64,000 nucleotides of DNA from assembly GCA_030527185.1 (NCBI GenBank), contig JAUNBF010000004.1:30347-94346 (forward strand), given 5' to 3'. Below, in pieces: positions 4,170-58,117 of this stretch. Position numbers and translations under genes: made by a program. Position 1 is the first letter of the stretch. Each line of letters starts with the position of its first letter. Below the pieces are notes generated by a model. That model had not been told where the DNA came from. It saw nothing but the letters and a program-made list of their open reading frames with translations, and ran no database searches. The DNA comes from Planctomycetia bacterium (GTDB lineage Bacteria; Planctomycetota; Planctomycetia; Pirellulales; Thermoguttaceae).

Positions 4170-4233
4170 GATTGTAGGAATATGTCCATTCAGGGCAGGA
4201 TTGTTTGTCAAACTATATAGAGGAGAAGTGAAC

Positions 4234-5595
4234 ATGAATTGGAAGACCCACCGACGTAATTTCCTGAAATCGACCGCTGTGGCAGGTGCCGGAGTGTTGA
4301 TTGTCAAGGATTTGCTGGCGAATGAATCCCCGAACGAGAAGATTGCCTTTGCCTGCGTCGGAATTGGTGGAAAGGGGAGCAGCGACTCGGCGGACGCGGC
4401 ACGGTTTGGTCAGGTCGTGGCGGTTTGCGACACGAACCGGAATCAACTCAAAGGGGGCGAAAAACGTTTTCCCGGCGCGAAGTTGTACGAAGATTATCGG
4501 GTGCTGTTCGAGGAGATGGGCAAAAGTATTGATGCCGTGACCGTCAGTACGACCGACCACATGCACGCTCCGATTGCGTCGATGGCGATGCGGATGGGAA
4601 AACATTGTTTTTGCCAGAAACCGTTGACGCGAACGATTTCGGAAGCACGGAAACTGGCGGAACTGGCGAAGGAAAACAACGTCGTGACGCAGATGGGAAA
4701 CCAGGGAACGGCCAGCACCAATTCCCGCGAAGGGGTGGCGTTGATTCGTAACGGGCTGGTGGGCGAAGTGAAGGAAGTGATGGTCTGGACGAACCGTCCG
4801 ATTTGGCCGCAGGGTGGTGAACGGGGCACCCCGGCGGAAGTCCCCGCGTATCTGAACTGGGAAGCGTGGCTGGGCTGCGCTCCCCAACGACCCTTTGTGC
4901 CGGGTGCGTATGATCCGTTTGCGTGGCGTGGTTGGTGGGATTTCGGCTCCGGGGCATTGGGAGATATGGCGTGCCATACCGCCAGCGTGGCGTATCGCGC
5001 GTTGGATATGAAAGACCCGGTGAGTGTCCAGGCCACGACCTCCGGCCACAACTACGACAGCTTCCCGAAATGGTCGACGATTGAGTTTGAATTCCCCGCC
5101 ACCGATTGGCGTCCCGGATTCAAGTTCACCTGGCTCGACGGCGGCAAACGGCCTGATCCCGAATTGTTGGGTGGAATCCAGCCTGCCGGTTCCGCGTTTT
5201 TGTTGATTGGAACGAAAGGGACGTTCTATTCGCCGGATGATTACGGCAATACCCGCACGATTATCGGAGCGGCGAAGGATGACGAGGCGGCGCTTTTGGA
5301 AAAAGTCCGTCCCGAAGTCCGCGTGGCTCAGGAAGGGCATTTCGGCGAATGGGTCGAAGGAATCAAGAAGAATGATCCGACGTTCCCGATGTCGAACATG
5401 ATTACGCAGGCAGGCGGCTTGACCGAAACGATTCTCCTGGGGAACCTGGCGGTCTGGGCGGCCAATAAACCGGAAGAATTGGGCGAAAAAGTGGAGTGGG
5501 ACGCCAAAAATCTGAAGATTTTGGGGAATCCGCAGGATCGGGAGCGGTTGGAATCGCTCGTCTTCCCGAAATATCGCGAAGGTTATACGCTGTAA
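4234..5595 (+). CDS. Tat-signal Gfo/Idh/MocA family oxidoreductase (paralogue 1)
   Basis: SD GAGGAG then ATG 4234. Twin-arginine signal HRRNFLKSTAVAGAGVL. Rossmann segment FACVGIGGKGSSD..VAVCD. Conserved STTDHMHA and CQKPL blocks. Confidence 0.9.
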   Translation: MNWKTHRRNFLKSTAVAGAGVLIVKDLLANESPNEKIAFACVGIGGKGSSDSADAARFGQVVAVCDTNRNQLKGGEKRFPGAKLYEDYRVLFEEMGKSIDAVTVSTTDHMHAPIASMAMRMGKHCFCQKPLTRTISEARKLAELAKENNVVTQMGNQGTASTNSREGVALIRNGLVGEVKEVMVWTNRPIWPQGGERGTPAEVPAYLNWEAWLGCAPQRPFVPGAYDPFAWRGWWDFGSGALGDMACHTASVAYRALDMKDPVSVQATTSGHNYDSFPKWSTIEFEFPATDWRPGFKFTWLDGGKRPDPELLGGIQPAGSAFLLIGTKGTFYSPDDYGNTRTIIGAAKDDEAALLEKVRPEVRVAQEGHFGEWVEGIKKNDPTFPMSNMITQAGGLTETILLGNLAVWAANKPEELGEKVEWDAKNLKILGNPQDRERLESLVFPKYREGYTL

Positions 5596-5608
5596 TTGTT
5601 TTTTTCAG

Positions 5609-5652
5609 CCTTCCCGTGGAACAGTGGTTTTGCGGGAAGGATTTTCTGCTTT
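5609..5652 (+). terminator. Putative rho-independent terminator
   Basis: Stem CCTTCCCG (5609-5616) pairs with CGGGAAGG (5633-5640). 16-nt loop, followed by ATTTTCTGCTTTT. Confidence 0.5.
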
Positions 5653-5669
5653 TAAAGAAGGAGTTTGAG

Positions 5670-7025
5670 ATGAAGACCCACCGACGTAATTTTCTGAAAT
5701 CGACCGCCGTTGCCGGGGCAGGGGTGTTGATTGCGCGTGATTTGCTGGCGAATGAGTCCCCGAATGAAAAGATCGCTTTTGCCTGTGTGGGAATTGGGGG
5801 GAAGGGGAGCAGCGACTCCGCCGACGCCGCCCGATTTGGTCAGGTGGTGGCGGTTTGCGACACGAACCGGAATCAGTTGAAAGGGGGCGAAAAACGGTTT
5901 GCTGGCGCGAAATTGTACGAAGATTATCGCGTGATGTTCGATGAGTTGGGCAAAAGTATCGATGCGGTGACGGTCAGTACGACGGATCACATGCACGCTC
6001 CGATTGCCGCCATGGCGATGCGGATGGGAAAGCATTGTTTTTGCCAGAAACCGTTGACGCGGACGATTTCGGAAGCACGGAAACTGGCGGAACTGGCGAA
6101 GGAAAACAACGTCGTGACGCAGATGGGGAACCAGACCACCGCCACGACCCCCTCACGAGAGTGCGTCGCGTTGATTCAGGCCGGTTTGATTGGCACGGTC
6201 AAGGAAGTAATTAGTTGGAGCAATCGTCCGGTCTGGCCGCAGGGTGGGGAACGTGGCACTCCGACGGAAGTTCCGGCGTATTTGAACTGGGAAGCGTGGA
6301 TTGGATCTGCCCCGATGCGACCGTATGTGGCAGGTGCGTACGATCCCTTTTCGTGGCGTGGTTGGTGGGATTTCGGTTGTGGAGCGCTGGGCGATATGGG
6401 TTGCCATCAGTTGAGTGTCCTGTATCGTGCCACCGATTTGAAAAATCCGGTCAGCGTTCAGGCCAAAACGTCCGGTCACAATTGCGACAGTCTGCCGAAG
6501 TGGTCGGTGATTGATTTCGTTTTCCCGGATACGGAACAACGGCCTGGGTTTACGTTTACATGGCTGGATGGTGGTCAGCGTCCGAATCCCGATTTGTTGC
6601 AGGGAGAGACGATGACGGGAAGTGGTTTTCTGCTCATTGGCGAAAAGGGAACGATGTTTTCGCCGGACGGGCAGGGTGCCAGCCGCAAGATTCTGGGTTC
6701 TGCGAAGGATGACGAAGCGGCCTTGCTGGAAAAAATCCGCCCGGAAATCCGTGTGGCGAAAGAAGGGCATTTCGGGGAATTTGTGGAAGGAATCAAGAAA
6801 AATGATCCGACGTTCCCGATGTCGAACATGATTACCAATTCCGGCGGCTTGACCGAGACGATTCTGCTGGGCAATCTGGCGGTCTGGGCAGCCAACAAAC
6901 CGGAAGAATTGGGCGAAAAAGTGGAATGGGACGCCAAAAATCTGAAAATTCTGGGAACGCCGAAAGATCGCGAACGGCTGGAATCGCTCGTTTTCCCGAA
7001 ATATCGCGAAGGATACACGTTGTAA
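5670..7025 (+). CDS. Tat-signal Gfo/Idh/MocA family oxidoreductase (paralogue 2)
   Basis: The track ORF starts at 5496 but overlaps paralogue 1. SD GAAGGAG then ATG 5670 gives MKTHRRNFLKSTAVAGAGVL, co-linear with paralogue 1 and highly similar throughout. Confidence 0.9.
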   Translation: MKTHRRNFLKSTAVAGAGVLIARDLLANESPNEKIAFACVGIGGKGSSDSADAARFGQVVAVCDTNRNQLKGGEKRFAGAKLYEDYRVMFDELGKSIDAVTVSTTDHMHAPIAAMAMRMGKHCFCQKPLTRTISEARKLAELAKENNVVTQMGNQTTATTPSRECVALIQAGLIGTVKEVISWSNRPVWPQGGERGTPTEVPAYLNWEAWIGSAPMRPYVAGAYDPFSWRGWWDFGCGALGDMGCHQLSVLYRATDLKNPVSVQAKTSGHNCDSLPKWSVIDFVFPDTEQRPGFTFTWLDGGQRPNPDLLQGETMTGSGFLLIGEKGTMFSPDGQGASRKILGSAKDDEAALLEKIRPEIRVAKEGHFGEFVEGIKKNDPTFPMSNMITNSGGLTETILLGNLAVWAANKPEELGEKVEWDAKNLKILGTPKDRERLESLVFPKYREGYTL

Positions 7026-7072
7026 TGATTAATGAACTAATGATTAATGGTTAGTGGTTAATGGTTGAAAAT
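7023..7072 (+). repeat. Heptanucleotide tandem repeat starting at the stop codon (TAATGAT-type units)
   Basis: TAATGAT TAATGAA c TAATGAT TAATGGT TAGTGGT TAATGGT TGAAAAT. The first unit contains the TAA stop of paralogue 2. Confidence 0.8.
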
Positions 7073-7109
7073 TGGGATTGTTCTTGTTTTTAGGGGGATT
7101 TTTTCCCTC

Positions 7110-7138
7110 TTGTGGGATTTTCCAAAATCGGATAGACT
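7110..7138 (+). promoter_or_regulatory. Possible promoter TTGTGG-17-TAGACT
   Basis: Same TAGACT -10 hexamer as at 4164. 17-nt spacer. Upstream of ATG 7203. Confidence 0.35.
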
Positions 7139-7202
7139 AACAAGAATCATGGGTGCGGTGCAAGTCCGTGTTTAATAGATGAAACCTCGAAGGAGAAAAC
7201 AG

Positions 7203-8567
7203 ATGACATTAAGAACCAACCGACGTAATTTTCTGAAGACCAGTGCCGTAGCGGGGGCGGGCGTGATGATTGTCAGCGACTTGCTGGCAAACGAATCGCC
7301 GAATGAACAGATTGCTTTTGCCGCCGTCGGAATCGGTGGAAAAGGCTCCAGCGACTCTGCCGACGCGGCTCGTTCCGGGCGAATGGTGGCGGTGTGCGAC
7401 ACGAACCGCAACCAGTTGAAAGGTGGCGAAAAACGTTTCCCCGGCGCGAAGTTGTACGAAGATTATCGGGTGATGTTTGATGAACTCGGCAAGAGTATTG
7501 ATGCGTTTACCGTCAGCACGACCGACCACATGCACGCGGTGATTGCGGCGGCAGGAATGCGGATGGGAAAACATTGTTTTTGCCAGAAGCCGTTGACGCG
7601 GACGATTTATGAAGCTCGCCGACTGGGTGAAATTGCCCGTGAAAACAAGGTGATTACGCAGATGGGCAACCAGGGTTCCGCGGGAAGTGGCCTTCGTGAA
7701 AGCGCGGCGCTGATTCGAGCCGGTTTGCTGGGCAAAGTTTCGGAAGTCATCGTCTGGAGTAACCGTCCGGTTTGGCCGCAGGGTGGCGAACGTGGACAGG
7801 AAGCTCCGGTGCCGGAATACCTGAACTGGGATTTGTGGCTGGGGAACGCCCCGAAACGTCCGTTTGTGCCGGGTGCGTATGATCCGTTTGCGTGGCGTGG
7901 CTGGTGGGACTTCGGTTCCGGTGCGTTGGGCGACATGGCGTGCCATACGGTGAACGTCGCGTTTGCGGCATTGGATATTCGGAATCCGACGTGGGTGGAA
8001 GCAATCACGTCCGGTCACAACTTCGACAGCCTGCCGAAATGGTCGAACATCACATTTGAATTCCCGGCCAACGATTGGCGTCCCGGCTTCAAGTTCACCT
8101 GGATGGATGGCGGCAAGCGGCCTGATCCCGAACTTCTGGAAGGGGAACAGCCGTCCGGTTCCGGGCTGGTGATTATTGGTGAGAAGGGTAAATTTTACTC
8201 CAAGAATGACTACGGTCAGGATCGGACGCTCTTTGGTGCGTGCAAAGAGGACGAAGCGGCGTTGCTGGAAAAAGTCAAGCCGACGGTTCCGGTGGCACCT
8301 GGTGGACACTTTGGCGAATGGGTCGAAGCGATCAAGCGAAACGATCCGAAACTTCCGTGGTCGAATTTCCCGGACTATGCCGGCCCGCTCACCGAAACGA
8401 TTCTGCTGGGCAACCTGGCCGTCTGGGCTGCCAACAAACCGGAAGAGAAGGGACAGCGCGTCAACTGGGATGCCAAGAATCTCCAGATTGTCGGCAATGT
8501 GGAAGATCGTGCGCGACTGGAGTCGTTGGTGAAACCGCAGTATCAGAATGGTTACGAGAACCTCTAA
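7203..8567 (+). CDS. Tat-signal Gfo/Idh/MocA family oxidoreductase (paralogue 3)
   Basis: ORF 7179-8567. SD GAAGGAG then ATG 7203 gives MTLRTNRRNFLKTSAVAGAGVM. Same conserved blocks as paralogues 1 and 2 but more diverged. Confidence 0.9.
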   Translation: MTLRTNRRNFLKTSAVAGAGVMIVSDLLANESPNEQIAFAAVGIGGKGSSDSADAARSGRMVAVCDTNRNQLKGGEKRFPGAKLYEDYRVMFDELGKSIDAFTVSTTDHMHAVIAAAGMRMGKHCFCQKPLTRTIYEARRLGEIARENKVITQMGNQGSAGSGLRESAALIRAGLLGKVSEVIVWSNRPVWPQGGERGQEAPVPEYLNWDLWLGNAPKRPFVPGAYDPFAWRGWWDFGSGALGDMACHTVNVAFAALDIRNPTWVEAITSGHNFDSLPKWSNITFEFPANDWRPGFKFTWMDGGKRPDPELLEGEQPSGSGLVIIGEKGKFYSKNDYGQDRTLFGACKEDEAALLEKVKPTVPVAPGGHFGEWVEAIKRNDPKLPWSNFPDYAGPLTETILLGNLAVWAANKPEEKGQRVNWDAKNLQIVGNVEDRARLESLVKPQYQNGYENL

Positions 8568-8657: not shown

Positions 8658-9833
8658 ATGTCCAAATTACCGGCATTCATGACAAGCCTGACACTTTTAA
8701 CCGCCCTGGCGACGAACGCGATTCCGGCGGCGGGAGAGTCTTCCATCACGGTCAAAACATGGGGCAAATTGCCCTCCGGGGAGGAAGTCAAACTTTACAC
8801 GCTCACGAACAATCTGGGAATGCAGGTGACGATTTCCAATTACGGCGGGTTGATTACGTCGCTTTGTGTGCCTGACAAAGAGGGGAAGATGGAGGATGTG
8901 ATTCTGGGGTTCGACACGCTGGAAGAGTACATGGAGAAGAGTCCCTATTTTGGAGCGGTCGTGGGGCGTTACGGAAACCGGATTGGCGGTGGAACGTTTA
9001 CGATTGATGGAACGGCCTATCAGGTCACGAAAAATGAGAAGGGAATCCAGTGCCTTCATGGCGGAAATGTTGGTTTCGACAAGAAAATCTGGGATGTGGA
9101 AGAAATCACCAGCGAAAACCTCCAGCACGACCGGATCGATACCGATAAAATCATCGGTTTGAAGTTGACGCTGATCAGTCCCGATGGCGAAGAGGGTTTT
9201 CCAGGGACGATCAACACGGTGCTGCATTACATGGTTCCGAAAGACACGAATCTGCTGGTGGTACTCTACGGAGCGACAACGGACAAGCCGACGCACCTGA
9301 ATTTGACGCAACATGCGTATTTTAACATGAAAGGGGCGGGAAATGGCGATATTCTGGATCACGAAGTGACGATTTGGGCAGACCGTTTCACGCCGGTGGA
9401 TGAAAATCTGATTCCGACGGGCGAATTGCGGGATGTGACCGGGACAGCCATGGATTTCCGTCAGCCGAATTTGGTGGGAGCCAGAATCGATGCCGACGAG
9501 GAACAGATCAAAATTGGCGGCGGCTATGATCACAACTGGGTTTTGAACGTGAAGGAAGGGGAGAATTTCCGTAAAGCGGCGAAAGTTCGTGACCCTGCCA
9601 GCGGTCGGACGATGGAAGTTTTCACCACGGAACCGGGCGTTCAATTCTACGCGGGCAACTTCATGAGTACCATGCCGGGAAAGGGTGGAAAAACCTATGT
9701 CAAGCGTGGCGGTCTCTGCTTTGAAACGCAGCATTTTCCCGATTCACCGAACAAACCGCAGTTCCCCTCCACGTTGGTAAAACCTGGGGAAGAGTACAAA
9801 TCAGCCACGATTTTCAAGTTCTCGGCGGAATGA
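8658..9833 (+). CDS. galM: Aldose 1-epimerase (galactose mutarotase), secreted
   Basis: SD AAGGAG. Signal peptide MSKLPAFMTSLTLLTALATNAIPAAG. GRYGNRI, LHGG..GFDKK.W, NLTQHAYFN and FETQHFPDSPN are mutarotase signature blocks. Confidence 0.9.
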   Translation: MSKLPAFMTSLTLLTALATNAIPAAGESSITVKTWGKLPSGEEVKLYTLTNNLGMQVTISNYGGLITSLCVPDKEGKMEDVILGFDTLEEYMEKSPYFGAVVGRYGNRIGGGTFTIDGTAYQVTKNEKGIQCLHGGNVGFDKKIWDVEEITSENLQHDRIDTDKIIGLKLTLISPDGEEGFPGTINTVLHYMVPKDTNLLVVLYGATTDKPTHLNLTQHAYFNMKGAGNGDILDHEVTIWADRFTPVDENLIPTGELRDVTGTAMDFRQPNLVGARIDADEEQIKIGGGYDHNWVLNVKEGENFRKAAKVRDPASGRTMEVFTTEPGVQFYAGNFMSTMPGKGGKTYVKRGGLCFETQHFPDSPNKPQFPSTLVKPGEEYKSATIFKFSAE

Positions 9834-25335: not shown

Positions 25336-25634
25336 CTTTTTCTCCCTGTTTTTCTGATTTTGTTGTTCGGATACAAAAGCCCCTGCCTCCGGGAAGGGTG
25401 AAATGAACGCATGAAGCTCGAATAAGGATCAATTTAACGAGGCTCTGGAGCATTTCTAAAAAACATTCTCCCTATTTGGTTATCCATATTGAAAATGGTT
25501 ATATCCCTACCCTATAAAATTTCCATGTCCAATCCCAGGTTCAAATATCCGCCGAGAAAAAAGTAGGAATGGAAATATCTCCATCTTCTGCGGAAACTCT
25601 CCTACGCTGTCAAAATATCAAATGTGGTATGAAC

Positions 25635-25660
25635 ATCAATAATTATCAATTATCAATTAA
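25635..25660 (-). repeat. (TAATTGA)n heptamer repeat 9 nt after the stop of the Hsp70-fold gene
   Basis: The sense strand reads TAG AGCTTTGCT TAATTGA TAATTGA TAATTAT TGATG. Confidence 0.85.
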
Positions 25661-25668
25661 GCAAAGCT

Positions 25669-28485
25669 CTAACCCAACTCAATATTATCCAAACCACCGG
25701 TGTCGAGATAATAACGTTCATCCGCCAGCGTCCGCCAGGTAAAGAAGACGTTTTCTCCCAATACCGCGTCCTGACCTGCCACGATTCCACTGACCGATTC
25801 CACTTCCAGCCCCTCTTCCTGATTTTCGATTGCCTTGTGACGCTTGATTTTGATGGAAACCTGCGTCCGACCAATCCGATCGCCAACGTCCATCTTGATA
25901 ACATAAATCGGCGTGGCCTGGGCTGTTTCCACATCGCTCATCTTGCGACCGATAATCACACGCTGGGAACTGGTCGTGAATTCCGTGATTTCTTCCCGCG
26001 AGCCTTCTTCCGCCGGAGAGAACAAAATCCGCTCCTTCCGAATGCCGCTCGTCGAGTCGCTCATCACGCCCCAGTAATACGTATTCTCTTCCGATTTTCC
26101 CGTCATTTCAAACTTGAACTGTGGCAACATTCCATGCGCTGCCATGAATCCAATCGCCGCACCGACCACCACCGGACTTTTCGGATCGATAATCACACCA
26201 GGAGACATCCCCTTTTCATCCTGATAGGGATACCAGTTTCCCGCGTAGTGGTGGAACATCGGAACAATCCGGGACGGCGAAAGCGGAAGGTACATCCGAA
26301 CCAACTTCTGGATATAACTCAATTTGGAAGGTTGCCCTGCCAGCAAAACGACATCGACTTCATATTCCATACAGCGTTTGCAGAAATCGAACAGCAACTC
26401 GTCGAAAACCTCGTGAACCACCCCCTCAAACTCTGCCTGATGGACATACAGTTCCATATCCTGTTGAAGATTGTAGTAGCCGGGACCACGAAGTTTGTCG
26501 AATGCCTGCTGAAGGGATTCCAGAACCGCCGGATCGATCAGTTCCGGGTCCATGTGATTGATCGGTTCCGTCGTGATTCCCTCCGTCGCCAGCGAAAGAT
26601 AGTGTTGCGTCAACGGAATCAAAAGACGGTTCATCCACATCACTCGCTGGTTCCGAAATTCCCGGTTGCGCGGAACTTCCGGCCCAAAAAGAAGAAGGAC
26701 GTCCTCTTCCTCCATGGCAATGGCATCCCCAAACGCTGGCACAATAATCCGTTCCAACAAACGTTTGGCCAGTTGGTCGCCTGCCAGGGCAATGCCGTCC
26801 TGATGGAGCACTTTGCCACGAACATAGTCGTCAATCTTCGACTCGAAATTGTACTTCGCAATCATCAGGTCGGACGTACCTCCGCCAATATCAATACAGG
26901 CAATGCGGACTTCGTGCTGTTTGTCGCCAAATTCCTCCACTTTATTGGCCGTCGAGCCGCGAACCGCTCCCATCCGACGGCGTGACGCGGGCGAACCCAA
27001 CATCGGAGCGGTATCCACTTTCGGCTCCTCCACTTCCGGCTTGCGACGTTCCTGGTGCAGTGACTCAAACCAAATTCGCGGGTCTTGCCCCAAAAGCCGC
27101 AATTCACTCCAGATGTACGTCAGGTGAACCGCACTCGCCTCGTCAATCGAAAGATTCAACAACGGTTTGACATGCTGGTATTTCCCCAGCGTCAGATTAA
27201 AAATCTCGATCGCCTTTTGGACTTGAGCCTGCAACCGTTCCCGCTCTTCAGGAATCATGCCGCTAGGATACGTCAATGTCAATGTGCGGATTTCCCGCGC
27301 ACGACCAGCATCTCCCGATTGCGTGCGGTACTGAATCGAATTCAGGTACGTGTAAGCCTGCGTCAGAAGTTCGTAAATCGCGGCTGTCATCAGGACTCGC
27401 GGAGCATGTCGCGGTTTCAACGGCATTTCCGGCGCAAAATCGGTCGGTTTCACGCCACTTTCCCGCAGCAGAAAATCGTTGTCGTCCTCATGAATGTATT
27501 TCAACAAAGCTCCGTGCAGCGTCGAACAATACGTCCGCGTTCCCGCGCGGTCATGGGGATCGGCCATGTGCCAGTTGGCGCCTTCCAACCAACTCGAATC
27601 GTCCGCCCACAAATAACGTTTCGGAGAACTAACCCCGGTACGAATATCGTCTGATGTGGCAATCACCTGCAACACATCGTCCGCTTCCTTACCCATACGG
27701 ACTTGCGACAAATCCTCAAACATCGGCGGACGAACCGTCACTTCCACTTTGTTCATCCGCGACTTGCTGCCGCTCCCCCAACTGCTGAACCAACCCTTTT
27801 TCTCGCCCCCCTCATCCACCTGATGATACTCAATTTTCTTCATCGGCATGGGAGAAAGGTACGGCGTGTTGCACCAGTGCGTCTTGGAGGAAAACCAGCG
27901 TGCCGACGGATTCCGAACCGGCTCACCATCGTCGTTCCACGAATCCAGATGATAACGATTCGTCAACTCAAACGGCAACATCTGGGGTGTCTGGGAAATC
28001 TCGCCCGCCACTTCCAGCAACAACGCTCCCGTTCGGCTGTTCCCAAAATCGACCACCATGTGAACATGCTTCGCGTCCCCTGCCGTGGCGGCTGCCGGGC
28101 GAATGCAAATTTCAATCTGCCCCACGCCACGCAAGGGTTGGCCGTTGAGGTCGTGGATATTCTCCAGAACCAACTGGAAATCCCCTGTCAGGGCGTTCGC
28201 GTCGCAAAAATAGCCGACTTCCGGGTCGCCGCACGTCGTGTCCACCGCCAAAAATAGTTTGGACGTCGTTCCCTGAATGATTTGCCATTGGATGAAGGGA
28301 TAGTCCATTCCCGTCGGGGTGGCTGGGGCATTTCCACGTTTCTTACCCCCCGTGTCCGCTTCTTCCGCCAGACCACAGTGACATCGCTGCCAACCATTAC
28401 CGACTTGATGAATATTATAACGTGCCCCTCCCTTCAAGGGAACACACACCACCTGAACTCCGGTATTTGCAAAAAGTACGTACAT
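25669..28485 (-). CDS. Hsp70/actin-fold (ASKHA) ATPase, large, SrfB-like by recollection
   Basis: 938 aa. Phosphate-1 motif VVDFGNSRTG (res ~144-153), connect motif SIDEASAVHLTY (res ~446-457), phosphate-2 motif IDIGGGTSDLMI (res ~531-542) and adenosine-like motif VLLAGQPSKLSYIQ. No Hsp70 substrate-binding domain is recognisable. Confidence 0.75.
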   Translation of the reverse strand: MYVLFANTGVQVVCVPLKGGARYNIHQVGNGWQRCHCGLAEEADTGGKKRGNAPATPTGMDYPFIQWQIIQGTTSKLFLAVDTTCGDPEVGYFCDANALTGDFQLVLENIHDLNGQPLRGVGQIEICIRPAAATAGDAKHVHMVVDFGNSRTGALLLEVAGEISQTPQMLPFELTNRYHLDSWNDDGEPVRNPSARWFSSKTHWCNTPYLSPMPMKKIEYHQVDEGGEKKGWFSSWGSGSKSRMNKVEVTVRPPMFEDLSQVRMGKEADDVLQVIATSDDIRTGVSSPKRYLWADDSSWLEGANWHMADPHDRAGTRTYCSTLHGALLKYIHEDDNDFLLRESGVKPTDFAPEMPLKPRHAPRVLMTAAIYELLTQAYTYLNSIQYRTQSGDAGRAREIRTLTLTYPSGMIPEERERLQAQVQKAIEIFNLTLGKYQHVKPLLNLSIDEASAVHLTYIWSELRLLGQDPRIWFESLHQERRKPEVEEPKVDTAPMLGSPASRRRMGAVRGSTANKVEEFGDKQHEVRIACIDIGGGTSDLMIAKYNFESKIDDYVRGKVLHQDGIALAGDQLAKRLLERIIVPAFGDAIAMEEEDVLLLFGPEVPRNREFRNQRVMWMNRLLIPLTQHYLSLATEGITTEPINHMDPELIDPAVLESLQQAFDKLRGPGYYNLQQDMELYVHQAEFEGVVHEVFDELLFDFCKRCMEYEVDVVLLAGQPSKLSYIQKLVRMYLPLSPSRIVPMFHHYAGNWYPYQDEKGMSPGVIIDPKSPVVVGAAIGFMAAHGMLPQFKFEMTGKSEENTYYWGVMSDSTSGIRKERILFSPAEEGSREEITEFTTSSQRVIIGRKMSDVETAQATPIYVIKMDVGDRIGRTQVSIKIKRHKAIENQEEGLEVESVSGIVAGQDAVLGENVFFTWRTLADERYYLDTGGLDNIELG

Positions 28486-28570: not shown

Positions 28571-28596
28571 CAATTATCAATTATCAATTATCAATT
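28571..28596 (-). repeat. (TAATTGA)n heptamer repeat, three units, 7 nt after the stop of the P-loop gene
   Basis: The sense strand reads TAG CTTGTCA AATTGA TAATTGA TAATTGA TAATTG CCGATGG. Confidence 0.9.
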
Positions 28597-28603
28597 TGAC
28601 AAG

Positions 28604-31198
28604 CTAGTTCTTTTTCATCTGCGCCAAAATACTTTCAAATGGCTCCAGAATCCGAATCAAATCCTCGTTGCCCGGCGGAATCTGGATATGGTCGCCCGCT
28701 CCCAACGCCAGCGCTTCCGGCAAACGTTCACACCAGCGTTTCACAAACGAGGCTGTCAAACCGTAATTGCCATAATACTCCAACGGCTTTTCATGCGGCT
28801 CTTTCTCGTCATCTTCCACGTCCAACTGCGGCGGGGCAATCGCTTCCTGCGTCGGGCCGGGGTTCATGATGTAGTCTTCCATAATCATCTTCACGTATTT
28901 CCGACGCGCATATCGACGTGCCGCCTCATCCCGTGTCTTCAAATTGACCACCGGACTTAAATCATCTATCAGCGTGTCGATACAATGCTGACTCTGCAAG
29001 TAGTCCCGCAGATACCGCACAAACGTGTTCAAATCGTTCCCGTCCAGCCACGGCGCACCATCGTCATGGCCTTTGGTATAATCTTCCCAACGTTTCGGAA
29101 CCTGTTTGGTCGCCCATTCGTGCAGGAACGCCCGCAGATTCTTCGGCAACGGGTCGCCGTGACGTTTGCCCGTGTCCGCGCAGTCCGCCAACTGCCAGTT
29201 TTCCCCTTCAGGAACACTCAACGCTTCCTGGAGAGCATACACCCTGGCATACGCCGCTTCCGGGTCGTCCGTCAACCAGTTCACCACCCGTTCCGCCGCG
29301 CGTACCCGCTTTTCCCGATCCACGTTCGCGTCCGGGTCCACCACCCAATCCCGTGCCAGCAAAAGGAGGCGATCCAGAACCTGATTGATTTCCATCTCCA
29401 ACTGATTCTGCTTGTCCGTGGCCGTTGTCACCGCTCGAATCCCCGCGGAAATCAGCGAAAGTCCACCGTCGCCATCCGTCATGGCGGTACTCCAGCGTTG
29501 TGCCGGATTGACCATGAAATCCTGAACCATTTCAGATTCCATAAACGCCTTTCCCGCACGAACCCACTTTTCAGGATCATCCGCCTGACGCTGTTCCTCA
29601 TCCGTATCCCACGTTCCCGGATACCGGATCGGATAGGTGTTCGTAAACGCTTTGCCGCGACCACCAAAATCGGTCATCACCGGTCCCAGCGTATCGACCA
29701 ACTGCCGCAGTCGTTGCTGGTACAGACCTTTGTCCGCATATTCCTGACGATTCCGAAATTCCTCATCAATTCCCGTCATTCCAATGAACAACGCGGGCAT
29801 ATCATCCTGCACCTTCGACGGCCAATACTTCTCACCATAACGGGCACGACCCCATTTGTCAATATGGTACTTCATTTGCGAAGTCACTTCCAGGTTGCCG
29901 CCACGCGAAAGAAGAATCAACGTCTGGATCTGCAACTCGTCCGTAAATCGTTCAAACAGGTAAGCCACCTTACCACGTTTGACAATCTCCATCTGCTCTT
30001 CCAGTTTGTCCGCGTCCTGCCGTTTTCCCTGTTCCGCTCCCTGACGTCCGGCTCGCATTCCGGGAATGTCCAGAAAGTCCATCTGCTCGATCACTTTTCG
30101 CCAGTCATCGTTCAATCGGTGCGGCAAAACCGGCAAAACCAGTTCCAACATCGCCGCCTGAATCGTTTCCAGGTCTTCCTCACCATTCCCACTTCCCGGA
30201 ACGTACTCCAGAACGTACCAATCCTTGCGCTGCCGCAAATGGAAATCTGCCCAATCGACCCGCGTAAAACATTTGGAGGTCTTCCGCTCGTGTACCTTCG
30301 CACGCTGCGAATCCAGCAGGAAACGAACCCCCGCCCAGTGTACCAGAATCGCTGGCTCGTGCGACGCGGAAAGTTTTTCCAGAAATTTATTGATTCGGAC
30401 AAACAGACCATTCAACGTTGACCAACCACCCCAGAAAATCTGCCCAGCCGCGTGAATGTATCCCTCCTCCGAAAGCGGATAACGACTCAAAAGAGCGTTC
30501 AGAATCGCTTCTTTCGTCGGAAATCCGCGTCGATCCACCGTCCGCATGTACGAATACGCGTCGAGAATGTCCATCCGCCAGCGTCGATCCACGCTCGTGC
30601 CGGGATATTGCCGGGAAACGTCTTCCAACATCTTCTCCAAATGCGGCTCGTCCCACGGAAAGTCCATCCCACGGCATTCCACCTGAAATCCACGTGCCAG
30701 CACACGAATCCACTCCACTCGCGTCAGGGCCTTCACCATCACCGGATATTCCGGCGAAACGCTTTCCGCAATACGGTCTTTCGTGGTAAATCGCGTTACC
30801 AGTGCCGTGGCTTCATTGGAACCACTTTGCGGATTCAGGTCGTTGTTGAAAGACAAGTCCTTATAATATGCCGGTTCGCCATGAGCCTCGTCCCGACCCA
30901 GAGGGCTGAACTGCTCGCTCTGAGCACGCAAAACCTGGCCCATGAAAAGACTTTTTCCCACCTGTGACGGACCATAAACTGCCGCCGCGACAGGAACTTT
31001 TGACGAGGTATAAAGACTGCGTGCCAGACGCCTCAACTGGAGAACCTCAAATTCGTCGCTCTCCGCAATCGGTAATAAATCAAGTTTCCGACGGTCGCTG
31101 TTGTACTCCGCAAGCCAATCACAAATCTCTGTCGCCAGATTCTCCACACGTTCTGCCTGTCGAATGATCTGACGATCCCGTTCATCTGGAAATCCCAT
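28604..31198 (-). CDS. Large P-loop NTPase (GTPase-like), SrfC-like by recollection
   Basis: 864 aa. Walker A AVYGPSQVGKSLF (res 73-85, nt ~30953-30976). DxxG-type motif FLDIPGMRAG. The remainder is helical. No signal peptide or TM. Confidence 0.7.
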   Translation of the reverse strand: MGFPDERDRQIIRQAERVENLATEICDWLAEYNSDRRKLDLLPIAESDEFEVLQLRRLARSLYTSSKVPVAAAVYGPSQVGKSLFMGQVLRAQSEQFSPLGRDEAHGEPAYYKDLSFNNDLNPQSGSNEATALVTRFTTKDRIAESVSPEYPVMVKALTRVEWIRVLARGFQVECRGMDFPWDEPHLEKMLEDVSRQYPGTSVDRRWRMDILDAYSYMRTVDRRGFPTKEAILNALLSRYPLSEEGYIHAAGQIFWGGWSTLNGLFVRINKFLEKLSASHEPAILVHWAGVRFLLDSQRAKVHERKTSKCFTRVDWADFHLRQRKDWYVLEYVPGSGNGEEDLETIQAAMLELVLPVLPHRLNDDWRKVIEQMDFLDIPGMRAGRQGAEQGKRQDADKLEEQMEIVKRGKVAYLFERFTDELQIQTLILLSRGGNLEVTSQMKYHIDKWGRARYGEKYWPSKVQDDMPALFIGMTGIDEEFRNRQEYADKGLYQQRLRQLVDTLGPVMTDFGGRGKAFTNTYPIRYPGTWDTDEEQRQADDPEKWVRAGKAFMESEMVQDFMVNPAQRWSTAMTDGDGGLSLISAGIRAVTTATDKQNQLEMEINQVLDRLLLLARDWVVDPDANVDREKRVRAAERVVNWLTDDPEAAYARVYALQEALSVPEGENWQLADCADTGKRHGDPLPKNLRAFLHEWATKQVPKRWEDYTKGHDDGAPWLDGNDLNTFVRYLRDYLQSQHCIDTLIDDLSPVVNLKTRDEAARRYARRKYVKMIMEDYIMNPGPTQEAIAPPQLDVEDDEKEPHEKPLEYYGNYGLTASFVKRWCERLPEALALGAGDHIQIPPGNEDLIRILEPFESILAQMKKN

Positions 31199-41169: not shown

Positions 41170-42348
41170 TTACACACTCTTCAAAACATCGCACAAAATA
41201 TCGCAGCCCGCATGAACTTCCGCTTCCGTCAAAATAGCCGCAGGCAAAAGCCGAAGCACCGTACCGTGCGTGCAGTTGATCAGCAGTCCCCGTTCCATAC
41301 ATCGTTGGACAATTTCCGTACCGTTCATGTTCAGCTCGATACCGATCATCGCTCCCCGACCGCGGACATCTTCAATCAAGTCGCACGTCTGCTGCAATTC
41401 CCGGAAACGCTGGAGGAATATCTCGCAGTTCCGATTCGCGTTTTCGAGAAGATTTTCCTCTTCAATCATCTGAATCGTGGCAATTCCGCCTGCCGCCGCA
41501 ATCGGATTCCCGCCGAACGTCGCCGCGTGCATTCCAGGCCGAAGCGAAGTTGCCAATTCCGAACGGCACATCAACACCCCTGCCGCCAGTCCTCCCGAAA
41601 CTGCCTTGGCCAACGACATCGTGTCCGGCGTCACGCCCAGTCGCTGATACGCAAACCACGTCCCGGTACGGCCACACCCTGTCTGCACCTCGTCAAAATG
41701 CAACAACAGCCCTTTCTGGTCACACAACGTCCGCAGCCCCTTCAAAAATTCCTCCGACGGAATCCGAACGCCCCCTTCGCCCTGAATCGGCTCCAGCATG
41801 ATGGCGGCAATCTCTTTGTCGTTCTCCACAATTTCCTTCACTGCCTGCAAATCATTGTACGGTGCATAGACAAAACCAGGCAAAAGCGGTCCCAATCCTT
41901 CATGGTACTTGGCCTGTGCCGTGGCGGAAAGCGAACCCATCGTCCGACCATGAAAACCACCTTCAAACGTGATGATTTTGTACTTTTTCTCACTGCTATA
42001 GTGCAATCGAATCAGTTTGATGGCCGCTTCGTTCGCCTCCGTGCCGGAATTGCAGAAAAAGCACTTTCCGCCAAAACTCCGCTCCGAGAGCATCTGTGCC
42101 CACTCTCCCTGAACGCGAGAGTACCACGAATTCGGAATGTGAATCAATTCGCCCAACTGCTTCCGAACCGCTTCCACCACACGTGGCGGGCAATGTCCCA
42201 ACAGATTGCACCCCCAACCGGGGAAGAAATCCAAATACCGTTTGCCATCTTCATCCCAGATGTACGAACCTTCGCCACGCACCAGTGTGACCGGGTAACG
42301 AGTGTAATTGGGAATCACGTACTTTTCAAACAAATCCAAAGTTTTCAT
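41170..42348 (-). CDS. argD: Acetylornithine aminotransferase (class III PLP)
   Basis: FFCNSGTEANEAAIKL and DEVQTGCGRTG, with the SLAKAVSGG PLP-lysine region. Confidence 0.9.
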   Translation of the reverse strand: MKTLDLFEKYVIPNYTRYPVTLVRGEGSYIWDEDGKRYLDFFPGWGCNLLGHCPPRVVEAVRKQLGELIHIPNSWYSRVQGEWAQMLSERSFGGKCFFCNSGTEANEAAIKLIRLHYSSEKKYKIITFEGGFHGRTMGSLSATAQAKYHEGLGPLLPGFVYAPYNDLQAVKEIVENDKEIAAIMLEPIQGEGGVRIPSEEFLKGLRTLCDQKGLLLHFDEVQTGCGRTGTWFAYQRLGVTPDTMSLAKAVSGGLAAGVLMCRSELATSLRPGMHAATFGGNPIAAAGGIATIQMIEEENLLENANRNCEIFLQRFRELQQTCDLIEDVRGRGAMIGIELNMNGTEIVQRCMERGLLINCTHGTVLRLLPAAILTEAEVHAGCDILCDVLKSV

Positions 42349-42375
42349 CTCTCTATGCCTTTACTAGCCACCAAA

Positions 42376-42395
42376 CAATTATCAATTATCAATTA
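42376..42395 (-). repeat. (TAATTGA)n heptamer repeat beginning at the argB stop codon
   Basis: The sense strand reads GAA TAATTGA TAATTGA TAATTG TTTGG. The first TAA is the argB stop. Confidence 0.85.
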
Positions 42396-43307
42396 TTCCG
42401 GGTGTACGAAATGCGACGAATATTTTCCATTGCTGGCAATAATTTCTGTCCCAATTCCAACCGTCGTGAAAATTTCCAACATCAGGGAGTGCCGCAGACG
42501 TCCATCGACGATATGGACTTTCCGTACCCCTTTGTGAATCGTGTCGAAACAGGCCTGCACTTTCGGAATCATCCCGGAGGAAATCGCTCCCGAGGCAAAC
42601 ATTTTCTCCGCCATTTCCTGTGTCAGCGTCGGAACCAGCGAATCCGGGTCGTCTTTGTCCAGCCGCACGCCATTGACATCGCTGAGATAGACCAGTTTTT
42701 CAGCCCGAAAAGTCTGTGCCACCACCTTCGCCACCGTGTCGGCATTGACATTCAGCTTCATCCCATCCTCTGTCATGCACATCGATGGAATGACCGGAAT
42801 GACGTTCCGTTTCAGCAACTCCTGAATTGGTTCGGTATGGATATGCGTTGCCTCACCCACAAATCCCAAATCGAGAAGCTCCCCATTTTCCCCCTTCAAC
42901 TGGATCGGCTTCCCAAAAACCACATTTTCCGTGTTGAAATTCAGCGACTTGGCATTGCCACCCAGAATGGTGATCTGTTCCACGAGTTGCTCATTGATTT
43001 CCGTGGCCAGCACCTTTTCCACAATCTGGAGCGTCCGCTCGCACGTATAACGCCGCCCCTGCACAAAACGGGACTCCAACCCCGCTTCCACCATTGCCCG
43101 ATTGATTGCCGGTCCGCCGCCATGCACCACAATCGGCTTGATTCCCACCGTCTCCATGAAAACCAAATCTTGCAGCAAATGCGACATCGCCAACGGATCG
43201 GTCATCAAGCTCCCACCCAATTTAATAACGAATATCTTGCCACGAAATTCTCGAATCCAGTACAGAGCCTCAATCAGAATATCCGCTTTCTCTATCGCAT
43301 CCAGCAC
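42393..43307 (-). CDS. argB: Acetylglutamate kinase
   Basis: GTG start. FVIKLGGS, VVHGGGP and NVNADT motifs. Confidence 0.9.
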   Translation of the reverse strand: MLDAIEKADILIEALYWIREFRGKIFVIKLGGSLMTDPLAMSHLLQDLVFMETVGIKPIVVHGGGPAINRAMVEAGLESRFVQGRRYTCERTLQIVEKVLATEINEQLVEQITILGGNAKSLNFNTENVVFGKPIQLKGENGELLDLGFVGEATHIHTEPIQELLKRNVIPVIPSMCMTEDGMKLNVNADTVAKVVAQTFRAEKLVYLSDVNGVRLDKDDPDSLVPTLTQEMAEKMFASGAISSGMIPKVQACFDTIHKGVRKVHIVDGRLRHSLMLEIFTTVGIGTEIIASNGKYSSHFVHPE

Positions 43308-43814: not shown

Positions 43815-45548
43815 TCACGATTGCGCCAATTCATTACTTTTCAAATATTCAATAAACTCATCCAATATCTGTTGATTTCGTGCTAGAATACTTTCTTCTG
43901 TAAAATCGGATTCCCTTTCAGCCAGGACTTGCAATTCCTGAATATTGGTTCCTTTTTTGCGAGAATCAGGAGTCCCCAGATAGTACCTTTTTTTATCGGC
44001 AAATTTATAATCGGAAGCTCTTATGTTGATTTTCTTTTCCAGGAGAGATTTGTTGCCAAGTAAAGTTAAGCTTTTGGGATTTTGAAGGGTTCTTTCAAAT
44101 TCCAAACGATTTCGCGCATAAATGTGTTCAATGTCAAAAAGGTCATAGATTGAAAGCAGTTCCTGATCCTCATTCTGAAATGCCCACCACGCGAGCATGG
44201 ATTTGGTGATAGGCCGTCGGTTGTTAAACTCGTAGGTTTGGAGTAAACTTTTAAGTGCTTCGACATCAAATTTATGATTACCAAAAGTTACTGGTACCCC
44301 TTTTACGATGTTACACATTTCTGGGTAAATGGGGGTTCTCAATGCGTTAACACCCGGATTAACAATCGCATAAGCCCAGATAAATGCGGTGATTTTATTC
44401 AGGAACGCATAAAAAGTATCGTCATCAAGGTTTCCGCTGGTGTCTTTATGATGCATAAAATATACGGAAACAAGATAAGTCCACATCCCATTAGGGGCAT
44501 AATTTAAAACGAAAAACCTTTGAAGAATACGGTTTGAAAAACGGTCTTCATTCTGAGAAAAGACATCACTCCAAAAATTTGCCAGCAAGACCAGATTTTC
44601 AAAGGTTTCTTCCTTTTTCAACAGGCGGTAATGATCTTTTTCATAAAATAATCTCAGCCCCTCCGTCGTCGTGGAGGTTTCGCCTTGCAAAGCACGTTCA
44701 TAATACATGTACTCTGTAAAGAGAGACTCCATGCCCCAAGAGAAGGTTTTTTCGCAAAGCTCATCCAAATCCTTCCAGCGTTTGATAAATTCATTCTTTT
44801 TATCGCGATTCACGTAAAATTTATAGAATTGAGCCTTGAAAATATCCGTATCCGACAAAGGGAGTCCCCGGTCGTTCAAGGTCATAAAAATCCGAAAAGC
44901 GGAATCCTGCGAGTTGGCTTCAATCGGCAAAAGAACGCAGTTATTTAAAATACGTGTGGGAAAAAGAGCGAAATAAGCGGAATACTCTTCCAAAAAATTT
45001 TCGATTTGTTCCCGGAAAAATTTATAATTGATGGCGTAATTGCTTTCCTGTTCTTTATAGGCCGTACCTTCCGAACCATCACGCAGGATGGAAAGAAACT
45101 CATCCGTATCCTTCTCGGTGGCAACTTCGGAATCTATTTTGAAGGAATCCTGATCTGGATTGTCAAATTCATCGGTCATCCAGATACACTTTGCGATATT
45201 TTCTCTTGTGGTGCGGGAATTTTTATCCTGTTGTTTCTGTCCGAACTCGTAAAAAGCTCGGAGTAACAATGTCAAGGTGATCAAACGCTGCTGACCATCG
45301 ATGACTTCCAGTTTTCCACTGCTGTTTTTGAACGTTACAATAGGGCCAAGAAAATATTCGTCGTTGGTACTGTCAAAACGGTTACAATCACCTCCAGGAA
45401 AGGCGAAGGTGAAAAAATCTTCCCAAAGTGTTTGACATTCATCTATCTCCCATGCGTAAGGACGCTGATAGTCTGGAATGAGAAAGCCTAATTTCGTATC
45501 TCGAAATAGAGCATTGACCGTTTTTTGCTCAATCGTTAGGCGGGACAT
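43815..45548 (-). CDS. DUF262 + DUF1524 (GmrSD-like) nuclease, candidate type IV restriction/defence protein
   Basis: N-terminal ParB-like DUF262 motifs IPDYQRPYAWE and IDGQQRLITL. The C-terminal DIEHIYARN..LGNKSLLEKKIN is an HNH/His-Me-finger-like DUF1524 motif. Confidence 0.8.
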   Translation of the reverse strand: MSRLTIEQKTVNALFRDTKLGFLIPDYQRPYAWEIDECQTLWEDFFTFAFPGGDCNRFDSTNDEYFLGPIVTFKNSSGKLEVIDGQQRLITLTLLLRAFYEFGQKQQDKNSRTTRENIAKCIWMTDEFDNPDQDSFKIDSEVATEKDTDEFLSILRDGSEGTAYKEQESNYAINYKFFREQIENFLEEYSAYFALFPTRILNNCVLLPIEANSQDSAFRIFMTLNDRGLPLSDTDIFKAQFYKFYVNRDKKNEFIKRWKDLDELCEKTFSWGMESLFTEYMYYERALQGETSTTTEGLRLFYEKDHYRLLKKEETFENLVLLANFWSDVFSQNEDRFSNRILQRFFVLNYAPNGMWTYLVSVYFMHHKDTSGNLDDDTFYAFLNKITAFIWAYAIVNPGVNALRTPIYPEMCNIVKGVPVTFGNHKFDVEALKSLLQTYEFNNRRPITKSMLAWWAFQNEDQELLSIYDLFDIEHIYARNRLEFERTLQNPKSLTLLGNKSLLEKKINIRASDYKFADKKRYYLGTPDSRKKGTNIQELQVLAERESDFTEESILARNQQILDEFIEYLKSNELAQS

Positions 45549-49128: not shown

Positions 49129-49638
49129 TTAGTTCATCGGCGGGTCGATAATCATATCGTATGCCATAAACTCATGAAGCATGAAAAAGATTCCCAACAG
49201 CAGTACCGCTACGGAAATCCACAACATCACCTCATACGGTGAGGCTTGCGTTAATTTCTGGAAAAAGGAGGGCTTTTCCTCTTTTTCGACAGGACTCTCC
49301 CCATCCGAAACTTCGTCCGAATCCTCCTGGTATTCCGATTCCTCTTCTTCGGCAACGTCCTCATCCGGTTCTTCGGGGTATTCCTCCCCATCCTCTTCCT
49401 GGGGATAATCTTCTTCGGGATACTCTTCTACCGCATCCTCACTCCCTTCCTCCGAGTATTCTTCTTCCGCGTATTCCTGCGGTTCTTCCTCGTACTCTTC
49501 GTAATATTCCTCTTCTTCCGAGGGTTCCTCCCCCCCATCTTCCACAGCTTCGTATTCTTCTTCAGGCATCCATTCTTCCTGGTATTCGTTTTTCTCGTTC
49601 GGATCAGCCATGAAATCTCTCCCTTGAATGTTTTCCAA
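49129..49638 (-). CDS. Extremely acidic E/Y/D-rich protein with a C-terminal TM anchor
   Basis: About 115 aa of EEEYYEEYEEEPQEYAEEEYSEEG-type sequence, then the TM MLWISVAVLLLGIFFML. An alternative start is MADPNEK. Confidence 0.55.
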   Translation of the reverse strand: MENIQGRDFMADPNEKNEYQEEWMPEEEYEAVEDGGEEPSEEEEYYEEYEEEPQEYAEEEYSEEGSEDAVEEYPEEDYPQEEDGEEYPEEPDEDVAEEEESEYQEDSDEVSDGESPVEKEEKPSFFQKLTQASPYEVMLWISVAVLLLGIFFMLHEFMAYDMIIDPPMN

Positions 49639-58082: not shown

Positions 58083-58117
58083 TCCACTCCCCACTATCCA
58101 CTATCAATTATCAATTA
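58083..58117 (-). repeat. Heptamer repeat array overlapping the 3' end and stop of the UPF0126 gene (TAATTGA x2, then TAGTGGA-type units)
   Basis: The sense strand reads AAA A TAATTGA TAATTGA TAGTGGA TAGTGGG GAGTGGA. The first units encode ..IIDN and the TGA stop. Confidence 0.85.

Follow-up and report, generated by a model that had tools for sequence, protein, structure and literature searches.

Tandem TAATTGA heptanucleotide repeats at gene ends in a planctomycete: array anatomy, turnover and candidate explanations

Described heptanucleotide repeats and the arrays of the window

Short tandemly repeated repetitive (STRR) heptamers were reportedly described by Mazel et al. in 1990 in heterocystous cyanobacteria, and their units are said to be CCCCAGT, TTGGTCA and CAACAGT. 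Heptanucleotide tandem repeats are common in several phyla, and for more than 30 years no function has been accepted for them. In this study, tandem arrays of the unit TAATTGA were analysed in a 64-kb stretch of contig JAUNBF010000004.1 from a Planctomycetia bacterium, the whole of which is called the window below; these arrays lie at or just behind stop codons, in the spacers between co-directional genes. An earlier note on this DNA had named the STRR repeats as the nearest analogy, which proved to be the right neighbourhood, and the TAACTGA direct repeats of marine Beggiatoaceae (Cand. Maribeggiatoa), Cyanobacteria and Bacteroidetes (MacGregor 2015, PMC4679880) are closer still.

Almost all TAACTGA sets are intergenic, and 14 of them overlap the end of the upstream open reading frame (ORF). 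Moreover, 132 of 170 sets are directed toward a downstream start codon without a ribosome-binding site, and 15 more toward one with such a site. The neighbouring genes have no functional theme, the repeat has no assigned function, and TAATTGA is a one-base variant represented by only six doublets in the Maribeggiatoa genome (PMC4679880). As quoted in the same paper, Mrazek (2007) reported that long simple repeats in most genomes are most often heptanucleotide repeats, for which the footprint of the polymerase is a possible reason, and attributed long simple repeats to polymerase slippage. In addition, Rehm et al. (2015, PMC4692102), who also mention the cyanobacterial STRR heptamers, described the G-rich heptamer repeats GGGAATC of Xanthomonas and GGGGA(T/C)T of Nostoc.

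The window arrays differ from the published TAACTGA repeats by one base per unit (TAAYTGA type), and they lie in a planctomycete host and at the stop codon. The two repeats share a 7-nt unit that carries TAA and TGA, a stop-free antisense strand, 2-6 copies per set, frequent interruption by related heptamers, a mostly intergenic location with some sets overlapping the upstream ORF end, and neighbouring genes without a functional theme. Both are sense to the flanking genes (for TAATTGA, 5/5 in the window and 28:11 among the non-cyanobacterial matches listed in the scan described below, with antisense arrays in the planctomycete S1R_St_37), and both are patchy across phyla, most TAATTGA loci among those matches being cyanobacterial or from Bacteroidota, with a single one in Parabeggiatoa. 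They differ in the unit itself, in the position, as the window arrays abut the upstream stop and not the downstream start or ribosome-binding-site position, and in the host, whose phylum is not among the heptamer-repeat hosts named in PMC4679880 and PMC4692102. With the STRR repeats, the window arrays share dispersed tandem heptanucleotide arrays in non-coding DNA and several unit families per genome; however, the host is not cyanobacterial, TAATTGA is not one of STRR1-3, and the arrays fall outside the strict STRR definition. The GGGAATC and GGGGA(T/C)T repeats are likewise mostly intergenic heptamers, with a preference for about 4 units, and have copies 3' of ORFs that lie 0-50 bp from, or overlap, the stop on the coding strand (PMC4692102). 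Unlike the window arrays, they form G-quadruplexes and contain no stop codon, and they are positionally conserved between two Xanthomonas species, in contrast to the rapid turnover documented below. As in contingency loci, strains differ by whole units, and a repeat may fall in a promoter that the unit number could alter; unlike those loci, the window arrays are not tied to genes for surface structures or antigens, the srf operon being a possible exception, and most lie outside promoters and ORFs.

Array detection with Tandem Repeats Finder (TRF, period 7) yielded five tandem heptamer arrays in the window, namely four (TAATTGA)n arrays on the minus strand and one TAATGAT/TAATGGT array on the plus strand (Table 1). 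All five are located in a spacer between co-directional genes, verified by Pfam, and are sense to those genes; they lie 0-9 nt from the preceding stop codon or supply that stop, and 27-305 nt from the next start. Perfect copies range from 2.4 to 3.7 at the four minus-strand sites, and the fifth array has about 6 units. The double unit TAATTGATAATTGA, with at most 2 mismatches, was found 10 times, compared with 0.33 expected from shuffles, and every one of its 4 exact copies is on the minus strand; for TAATTGA as a single unit, no enrichment was seen in the window (10 observed vs 7.25 expected). The window arrays are heptanucleotide simple sequence repeats, head to tail beyond chance, dispersed in spacers and variable in whole-unit copy number. 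Furthermore, they have no flanking sequence in common, which points to independent origins. About 35 other genes of the window have no such array, and the genes that flank the arrays have no functional theme.

The TAATTGATAATTGA enrichment and the Pfam-verified gene positions bear out the earlier note in its view that the repeats are non-random, intergenic, sense and stop-adjacent in the window. Its list of five minus-strand TAATTGA sites behind stop codons stands for the four arrays detected by TRF; the site at 1092-1106, between ubiX and an RNA gene, consists of two degenerate units at chance level within the palindrome GGAATTgatAATTCC. The single TAATTGT that forms the stop of a Gfo paralogue (paralogue 1, 5593-5599), which was also listed there, is at chance level, as the single unit is not enriched. 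The plus-strand array at 7023-7066 was absent from that list.

The arrays are probably slippage-driven heptanucleotide microsatellites that are tolerated flush at ORF ends only in their stop-rich orientation. Slipped-strand mispairing would let them grow, shrink, appear and vanish in 7-nt steps. The sense unit holds TAA and TGA (or TAG), and two units close all three frames. Whatever its copy number, and even if small indels or deletions have occurred, a sense array flush with, or replacing, an ORF end would therefore add a few residues at most, and the stop-free antisense array (TCAATTA)n could not be tolerated in the same place. The transcribed sense spacer RNA would be C-free, AU-rich and unstructured, and hence harmless inside operons. 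Stop codons and short C-terminal tails would be side effects, and from about four units upwards the array would also make a sense-directed sigma-70-like promoter. We infer both slippage as the mechanism and the tolerance filter as the cause of the orientation; a stop-rich sense strand would account for the flush-and-sense rule, for ORF ends in all three frames and for the repeat-encoded tail of a UPF0126 protein.

Copy number and turnover between close relatives

The best homologues of ArgD, TRIC and SrfB were found in metagenome-assembled genomes (MAGs) of Planctomycetia and Thermoguttaceae, and orthologous spacers were compared for four of the five arrays, the plus-strand array being outside the relatives compared. 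Copy number varies between strains, a comparison for which the earlier note had asked. The argB|argD spacer contains 2.9 units in the window, compared with at least 7.9 in L121, an ENA contig with a 99% identical ArgD, which opens within TAATTGA units and whose following 30 nt are nearly as in the window. This array is absent from four relatives with 76-79% identical ArgD, in which the spacer measures 8 nt (L122), 188 nt (L123), 22 nt (L124/L125) and 535 nt (L126). The UPF0126|aminotransferase array is absent from L127 (protein 94% and DNA 82% identical), where the protein ends in GKDSK before the stop instead of the GKDKIIDN of the window, whose IIDN and stop derive from the repeat; it is also absent from L128-L131. 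The spacer after srfB measures 333 nt in the window and is array-free, with 43 nt, in the closest relative, L132. In contrast, the srfC|srfB array, which is the primary site, is shared unchanged with L132, with identical sequence and 3.7 units (SrfB 97%, SrfC 100% and DNA about 95% identical); the 40-nt srfC|srfB spacer of S1R_St_37 (L133) is array-free. Three of the four comparable arrays are accordingly absent from close relatives.

The arrays are therefore young: they come and go among close relatives, and for at least one of them strains differ by whole units. Rapid turnover together with whole-unit polymorphism fits a microsatellite. What this case adds is a planctomycete host, a clear instance of copy number changing by whole units among near-identical strains, and the rule for arrays at ORF ends given below. 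A scan of JGI metagenomes for further alleles of the primary site (28571-28598) gave no match, and neither did exact-protein look-ups with argB and argD of the window. Many arrays stand at contig ends (L121, L124, L066 and several scan matches), which is the typical assembly break at repeats; arrays of this kind thus break assemblies, and they also shift annotated stop codons, both of which call for caution in genome work. If they are shaped by a tolerance filter only, the arrays would be a useful strain marker.

The spacer after srfB (25336-25668) has about 290 nt extra relative to L132. Identity to L132 is about 95% over most of this block, falls to 83-90% over the final 2 kb of srfB and reaches 70% beyond it, in the next gene. 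This drop beside the 25639-25659 array suggests a recombination or replacement junction, and a second copy of the approximately 290-nt segment was found neither in the window nor in any compared locus.

Variable unit number could also affect transcription. It is decidedly unlikely that the arrays act as internal promoters governed by copy number, as contingency loci in which four or more units make TTGATA-N17-GATAAT and slippage switches the downstream gene. The copy number is indeed polymorphic, and the long allele of L121 carries four overlapping sigma-70-like sites (TTGATA-17-GATAAT, each 10/12) reading into argD, whereas the 2.9-unit allele of the window has no promoter-like match. Moreover, at the primary site a 10/12 match reads toward srfB, its -35 hexamer (TTGTCA) supplied by the flank and its -10 hexamer (GATAAT) by the last repeat unit with an 18-nt spacer, and it is kept in L132. 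However, besides the argB|argD allele of the window, the other three of the five window arrays have no promoter-like match either. The units TAATGGT and TAGTGGA are unable to form the hexamers, and only 22/129 arrays elsewhere, among the matches listed, reach 4.14 units. In addition, consensus matches are cheap in AT-rich repeats, and the sigma-70 consensus used for scoring may not be that of the planctomycete host.

Stop codons and orientation in the window and in other genomes

After the five array-flanked genes, every frame is closed within 23-50 nt, whereas the 19 other window genes whose frames all close within 400 nt need 117 nt in the median; the antisense strand (TCAATTA)n is stop-free in every frame. 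The claim of the earlier note that the repeats place stops in all frames therefore holds, with one reservation at argB, where the 2.9-unit array gives no second frame-0 stop and the next in-frame stop is 48 nt on. The array at argB could thus catch frameshifted ribosomes, not read-through. Within the units, each stop is followed by T (TAAT, TGAT, TAGT), and a stop followed by T is an efficient termination context in E. coli.

No intrinsic terminator, defined as a GC-rich hairpin with a U-tract, was found inside or immediately beside any window array; the two terminator-like matches in the scanned regions both lie inside srfB, 0.9-1.9 kb away from the arrays. Folding of each array with its flanks was no better than that of shuffles (z from -1.5 to +1.3). 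An Rfam scan of the window gave no match at the arrays, so that a known structured RNA family was rejected, and its sole gathering-level match was the signal recognition particle (SRP) RNA at 932-1029. A Fur box was also considered and rejected; TGATAAT is the half-site of the 7-1-7 box, but, as judged by eye, the 19-bp consensus fits (GATAATT)n over its first six bases only.

The earlier note had argued from strict orientation for a function in the mRNA, in translation termination or in transcription termination, and against a random microsatellite. Such a selected fail-safe, which would stop ribosomes in every frame or end transcription after the gene, is very improbable, and a dedicated termination function is not supported by the present data. 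The rapid closure of frames, the T after each stop and the end of UPF0126 within its own array would all suit it, as would the sense orientation of 13/13 stop-flush arrays among the non-cyanobacterial matches listed. However, the arrays have neither hairpin nor U-tract, argB gains no second in-frame stop for 48 nt, about 35 other window genes manage without arrays, and close relatives differ in which arrays they carry, with unit numbers from 2.9 to at least 7.9 although 2 would suffice. Furthermore, Cyanobacteria have no such bias among the matches listed, the stop-free GGGAATC repeat is also found flush with stops (PMC4692102), and a sense-only pattern is trivial because stops exist on that strand only.

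Orientation was then compared across genomes, with one genome per species and TAATTGATAATTGATAATT as query, which gave at least 120 loci; the counts that follow hold among the matches listed. Of these loci, 51 were cyanobacterial (Okeania, Dapis, Rivularia, Lyngbya, Trichodesmium, Chamaesiphon and others) and 39 belonged to Bacteroidota. The remaining hosts include Ignavibacteria, Calditrichaceae, the candidate phyla radiation (CPR), Fibrobacter, Parabeggiatoa (1) and a few others, as well as Sedimentisphaerales, Kiritimatiellales, Akkermansiaceae and Planctomycetia S1R_St_37 from the Planctomycetota-Verrucomicrobiota-Chlamydiota (PVC) group. TAATTGA arrays thus occur across phyla. Genes at these loci were called by an amino-acid-composition score, checked against Pfam-verified genes and antisense shadow ORFs, and only arrays between co-directional genes were counted. 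Sense and antisense arrays numbered 19 and 6 in Bacteroidota, 8 and 1 in other phyla and 0 and 3 in PVC, and all non-cyanobacterial arrays together gave 28 and 11 (p = 0.009); Cyanobacteria, with 9 and 13, had no bias.

The distance from array to upstream stop is independent of start-codon calling. By this measure, 13/28 sense arrays outside the Cyanobacteria lie within 15 nt of the upstream stop, compared with 0/11 antisense arrays, and six of the 13 overlap the stop at offsets of -3, -7 and -14, that is, in all three entry frames. When flush arrays are excluded, the sense:antisense ratio is 15:11. In Cyanobacteria, the flush fractions are 4/9 for sense and 3/13 for antisense arrays. A count by nearest gene end placed 15 sense arrays and 1 antisense array at 3' ends, but it is partly inflated by longest-ORF start calling, and the distance-to-stop measure was preferred. 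The sense and stop-flush arrangement of the window is thus found again in other genomes; Cyanobacteria have no such bias. In the window and among the non-cyanobacterial matches, an array in contact with an ORF end always has its stop-bearing strand as the sense strand, and in some cases the stop codon itself comes from the array. Heptamer arrays of other units at the same loci had no clear orientation, G/C or stop-content bias in either group. One listed match is coding (L006 4374-4393): its 2.9 antisense units encode ...NTIINYQLP... in an Ignavibacteria protein, in a segment that presumably resembles a type IX secretion C-terminal sorting domain, so that some short arrays are ordinary coding sequence.

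Orientation is not strict, as the earlier note had held, even in the planctomycete lineage. The MAG S1R_St_37 is the nearest array-bearing relative (ArgD 77%, SrfB 88% identical), and its genes beside the arrays are on the plus strand, as called by Pfam (PGK, ApbE) or by composition score (L066); the opposite, minus strand carries its TAATTGA/TAATGGT arrays, which precede pgk, the ApbE gene, an L066 gene, argJ and argB. Among them, the L124 array at 1836-1872 is antisense to both flanking co-directional plus-strand genes. Its spacer (1744-1995, from a Pyridox_ox_2 gene to argB) holds two sense units 17 nt past the upstream stop and, about 60 nt beyond these, a 5-unit antisense array, an inverted pair that could form a long hairpin. 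The pair lies upstream of a promoter-like site, TTGACA-17-TAAAAT. This layout, sense on the stop side and antisense on the start side, is also that of the stop-free GGGAATC repeats (PMC4692102).

The arrays of S1R_St_37 also bear on a regulatory role. A cis-regulatory RNA element of the kind proposed for TAACTGA, in which an unstructured, AU-rich (UAAUUGA)n is bound by ribosomal protein S1, a cold-shock or RRM-type protein or a nuclease and affects how the next cistron is translated or how stable it is, seems unlikely. Each of the five window arrays precedes a co-directional gene and is probably transcribed together with it, and 9/28 non-cyanobacterial sense arrays, from Bacteroidota and other phyla, end 0-15 nt before a start codon; the TAACTGA sets of Cand. 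Maribeggiatoa also face the downstream start (PMC4679880). Moreover, a conserved binding partner would explain the specificity for one unit across phyla, and deletion of heptamer repeats in Nostoc recO constructs modestly changed reporter output (bioRxiv 10.1101/2022.06.06.494920). Against this role, the window arrays hug the stop, with the next start 27-305 nt off, several window genes are preceded by ordinary Shine-Dalgarno-like sequences, the arrays are not kept at orthologous spacers, no functional theme unites the genes beside them, and the units of S1R_St_37 are antisense to the downstream gene.

A further candidate for the cause of the orientation is avoidance of Rho. The termination factor Rho is missing from Cyanobacteria and present in the Fibrobacterota-Chlorobiota-Bacteroidota (FCB) group and PVC, and the G-free antisense array resembles a Rho loading site. 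This idea is weakened by the absent bias in other heptamer arrays, and Rho avoidance can be put forward as a weak explanation at best.

A strand-polar feature of the DNA itself, by which orientation follows replication or a sequence-specific mobile or repeat-adding machinery spreads arrays horizontally, has a slighter probability still than a termination fail-safe. Each array shares the strand of the gene block around it, minus or plus, and the GC skew turns where the blocks switch, at about 19.6 kb. The identical unit recurs in distant phyla, as patchily as TAACTGA, whose orientation is chromosome-consistent in a Microcystis sample (PMC4679880); a conserved element directly follows arrays in three cyanobacterial genera; and a replaced segment has its junction at the 25641 array. 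However, GC skew goes with the gene strand in the small plus block at 60-64 kb as well, which makes the replication direction unreadable; the arrays have no common flanks and no adjoining transposase or reverse transcriptase in the window, and the 290-nt segment after srfB has no second copy. A mobile element carrying the arrays was rejected on the same grounds, as flanks are not shared and the post-srfB spacer is single-copy in the window and the compared loci.

As for the skew, it is strong and tied to the coding strand: the plus-gene block has values of about +0.1 to +0.2, and the minus-gene block values of -0.1 to -0.23. The genes converge at 19597/19618, near the switch at about 19600. 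As for the element, TAATTGA arrays in Okeania, Dapis and Trichodesmium run directly, and always after ...GATAATT, into a conserved ACCTCT(G/C)... sequence (L002, L040-L042, L056, L061, L093, L098, L101, L113, L119), which looks like a small mobile element inserted at, or carrying, a TAATTGA repeat.

Several observations weigh against slippage with a tolerance filter. Plain slippage does not explain why TAATTGA should arise in four independent spacers within 33 kb, nor why it recurs in Cyanobacteria, Bacteroidota, PVC and others; the same puzzle of unit specificity was raised by MacGregor for TAACTGA (PMC4679880). The primary array is unchanged in L132 at about 5% nucleotide divergence and carries a 10/12 promoter match, which is compatible with constraint. 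The filter fits arrays that overlap the stop better than those 5-9 nt downstream, and the heptamer arrays of other units at the same loci have no clear orientation bias. Finally, the 5/5 sense orientation in the window alone corresponds to p of about 0.03 to 0.06, and the gene calls at the comparison loci rest on a heuristic of this analysis. Slippage nevertheless remains the probable origin, as copy-number change, array loss and the absence of terminator or structure all speak for a microsatellite and not for the termination function once proposed.

Unit specificity would be met by a broader scheme, which is quite unlikely. In this scheme, TAATTGA and TAACTGA would form one sequence-specific system in Cyanobacteria, Bacteroidota, Beggiatoaceae and PVC, in which arrays are maintained or made because a conserved partner recognises the sense heptad, and stop-flush sense arrays constitute an intercistronic module. 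A protein that binds RNA or DNA could be this partner, and so could an enzyme that adds or targets repeats. If so, the module would free ribosomes whatever their frame and decide what becomes of the downstream message, and bacteria with Rho might allow the C-free orientation only. Unit specificity that reflects a binding partner would represent an unrecognised regulatory layer across phyla.

Array sites and other features of the window

The coordinates of the arrays, their neighbouring genes and further features are collected in Table 1. At the primary site, the minus strand reads TAG CTTGTC AAATTGA TAATTGA TAATTGA TAATTGC.

Table 1. Heptamer arrays, flanking genes and other features of the 64-kb window
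Feature	Position	Strand	Basis	Remarks
(TAATTGA) array, 3.7 copies, 100% match	28571-28596 (feature to 28598)	minus	TRF	first unit degenerate (AAATTGA); begins 5 nt past the TAG stop of the SrfC-like gene; 85 nt before srfB start
Sigma-70-like promoter match TTGTCA-18 nt-GATAAT toward srfB	28573-28602	minus	consensus match only, 10/12	
SrfC-like gene (Virul_Fac)	28604-31198	minus	Pfam	
srfB	25669-28485	minus	Pfam	next after SrfC-like gene
(TAATTGA) array, 2.7 copies plus degenerate TAATTAT	25639-25659 (TRF 25641-25659)	minus	TRF	9 nt past srfB TAG stop; upstream edge of 333-nt spacer
(TAATTGA) array, 2.9-3.0 units	42375-42396 (TRF 42376-42396)	minus	TRF	argB stop TAA (42393-42395) is first TAA of array; argD ATG 27 nt downstream
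argB	42393-43307	minus	Pfam	
argD	41170-42348	minus	Pfam	next after argB
Composite array: TAATTGA x2.4 (58102-58118), then TAGTGGA/TAGTGGG/GAGTGGA (58083-58105)	58083-58118	minus	TRF	encodes last four codons (IIDN) and TGA stop of TRIC/UPF0126 gene
TRIC/UPF0126 channel gene	58104-58778	minus	Pfam	
Class I/II aminotransferase gene	56927-58039	minus	Pfam	next after TRIC/UPF0126
Mixed array, ~6 units: TAATGAT TAATGAA(C) TAATGAT TAATGGT TAGTGGT TAATGGT	7023-7066	plus	TRF	opens with TAA stop of Gfo/Idh/MocA paralogue 2; paralogue 3 lies 112 nt downstream
Three tandem TAT-signal Gfo/Idh/MocA oxidoreductase paralogues	4201-8567	plus		
Aldose 1-epimerase gene	8658-9833			follows the Gfo/Idh/MocA paralogues
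Bacterial small SRP RNA gene	932-1029	minus	Rfam RF00169, 46.8 bits	directly downstream of ubiX
GmrSD-type (DUF262/DUF1524) restriction endonuclease gene	43815-45548	minus		
Two runs of 15-nt tandem repeats (CTCTTCTTCGGGATA-like)	49393-49476			inside ORF 49129-49638 (minus)

Besides argB and argD, the nearby argF was confirmed by Pfam. The GmrSD-type gene lies upstream of the argB-argD-argF-WYL regulator cluster, with a gap of 507 nt to argB. The three Gfo/Idh/MocA oxidoreductase genes were likewise confirmed by Pfam, and paralogues 1 and 2 share their final residues (YTL before the stop). Finally, since the unit of the two repeat runs at 49393-49476 is 15 nt long and lies within an ORF, the small protein encoded there would contain a pentapeptide repeat.

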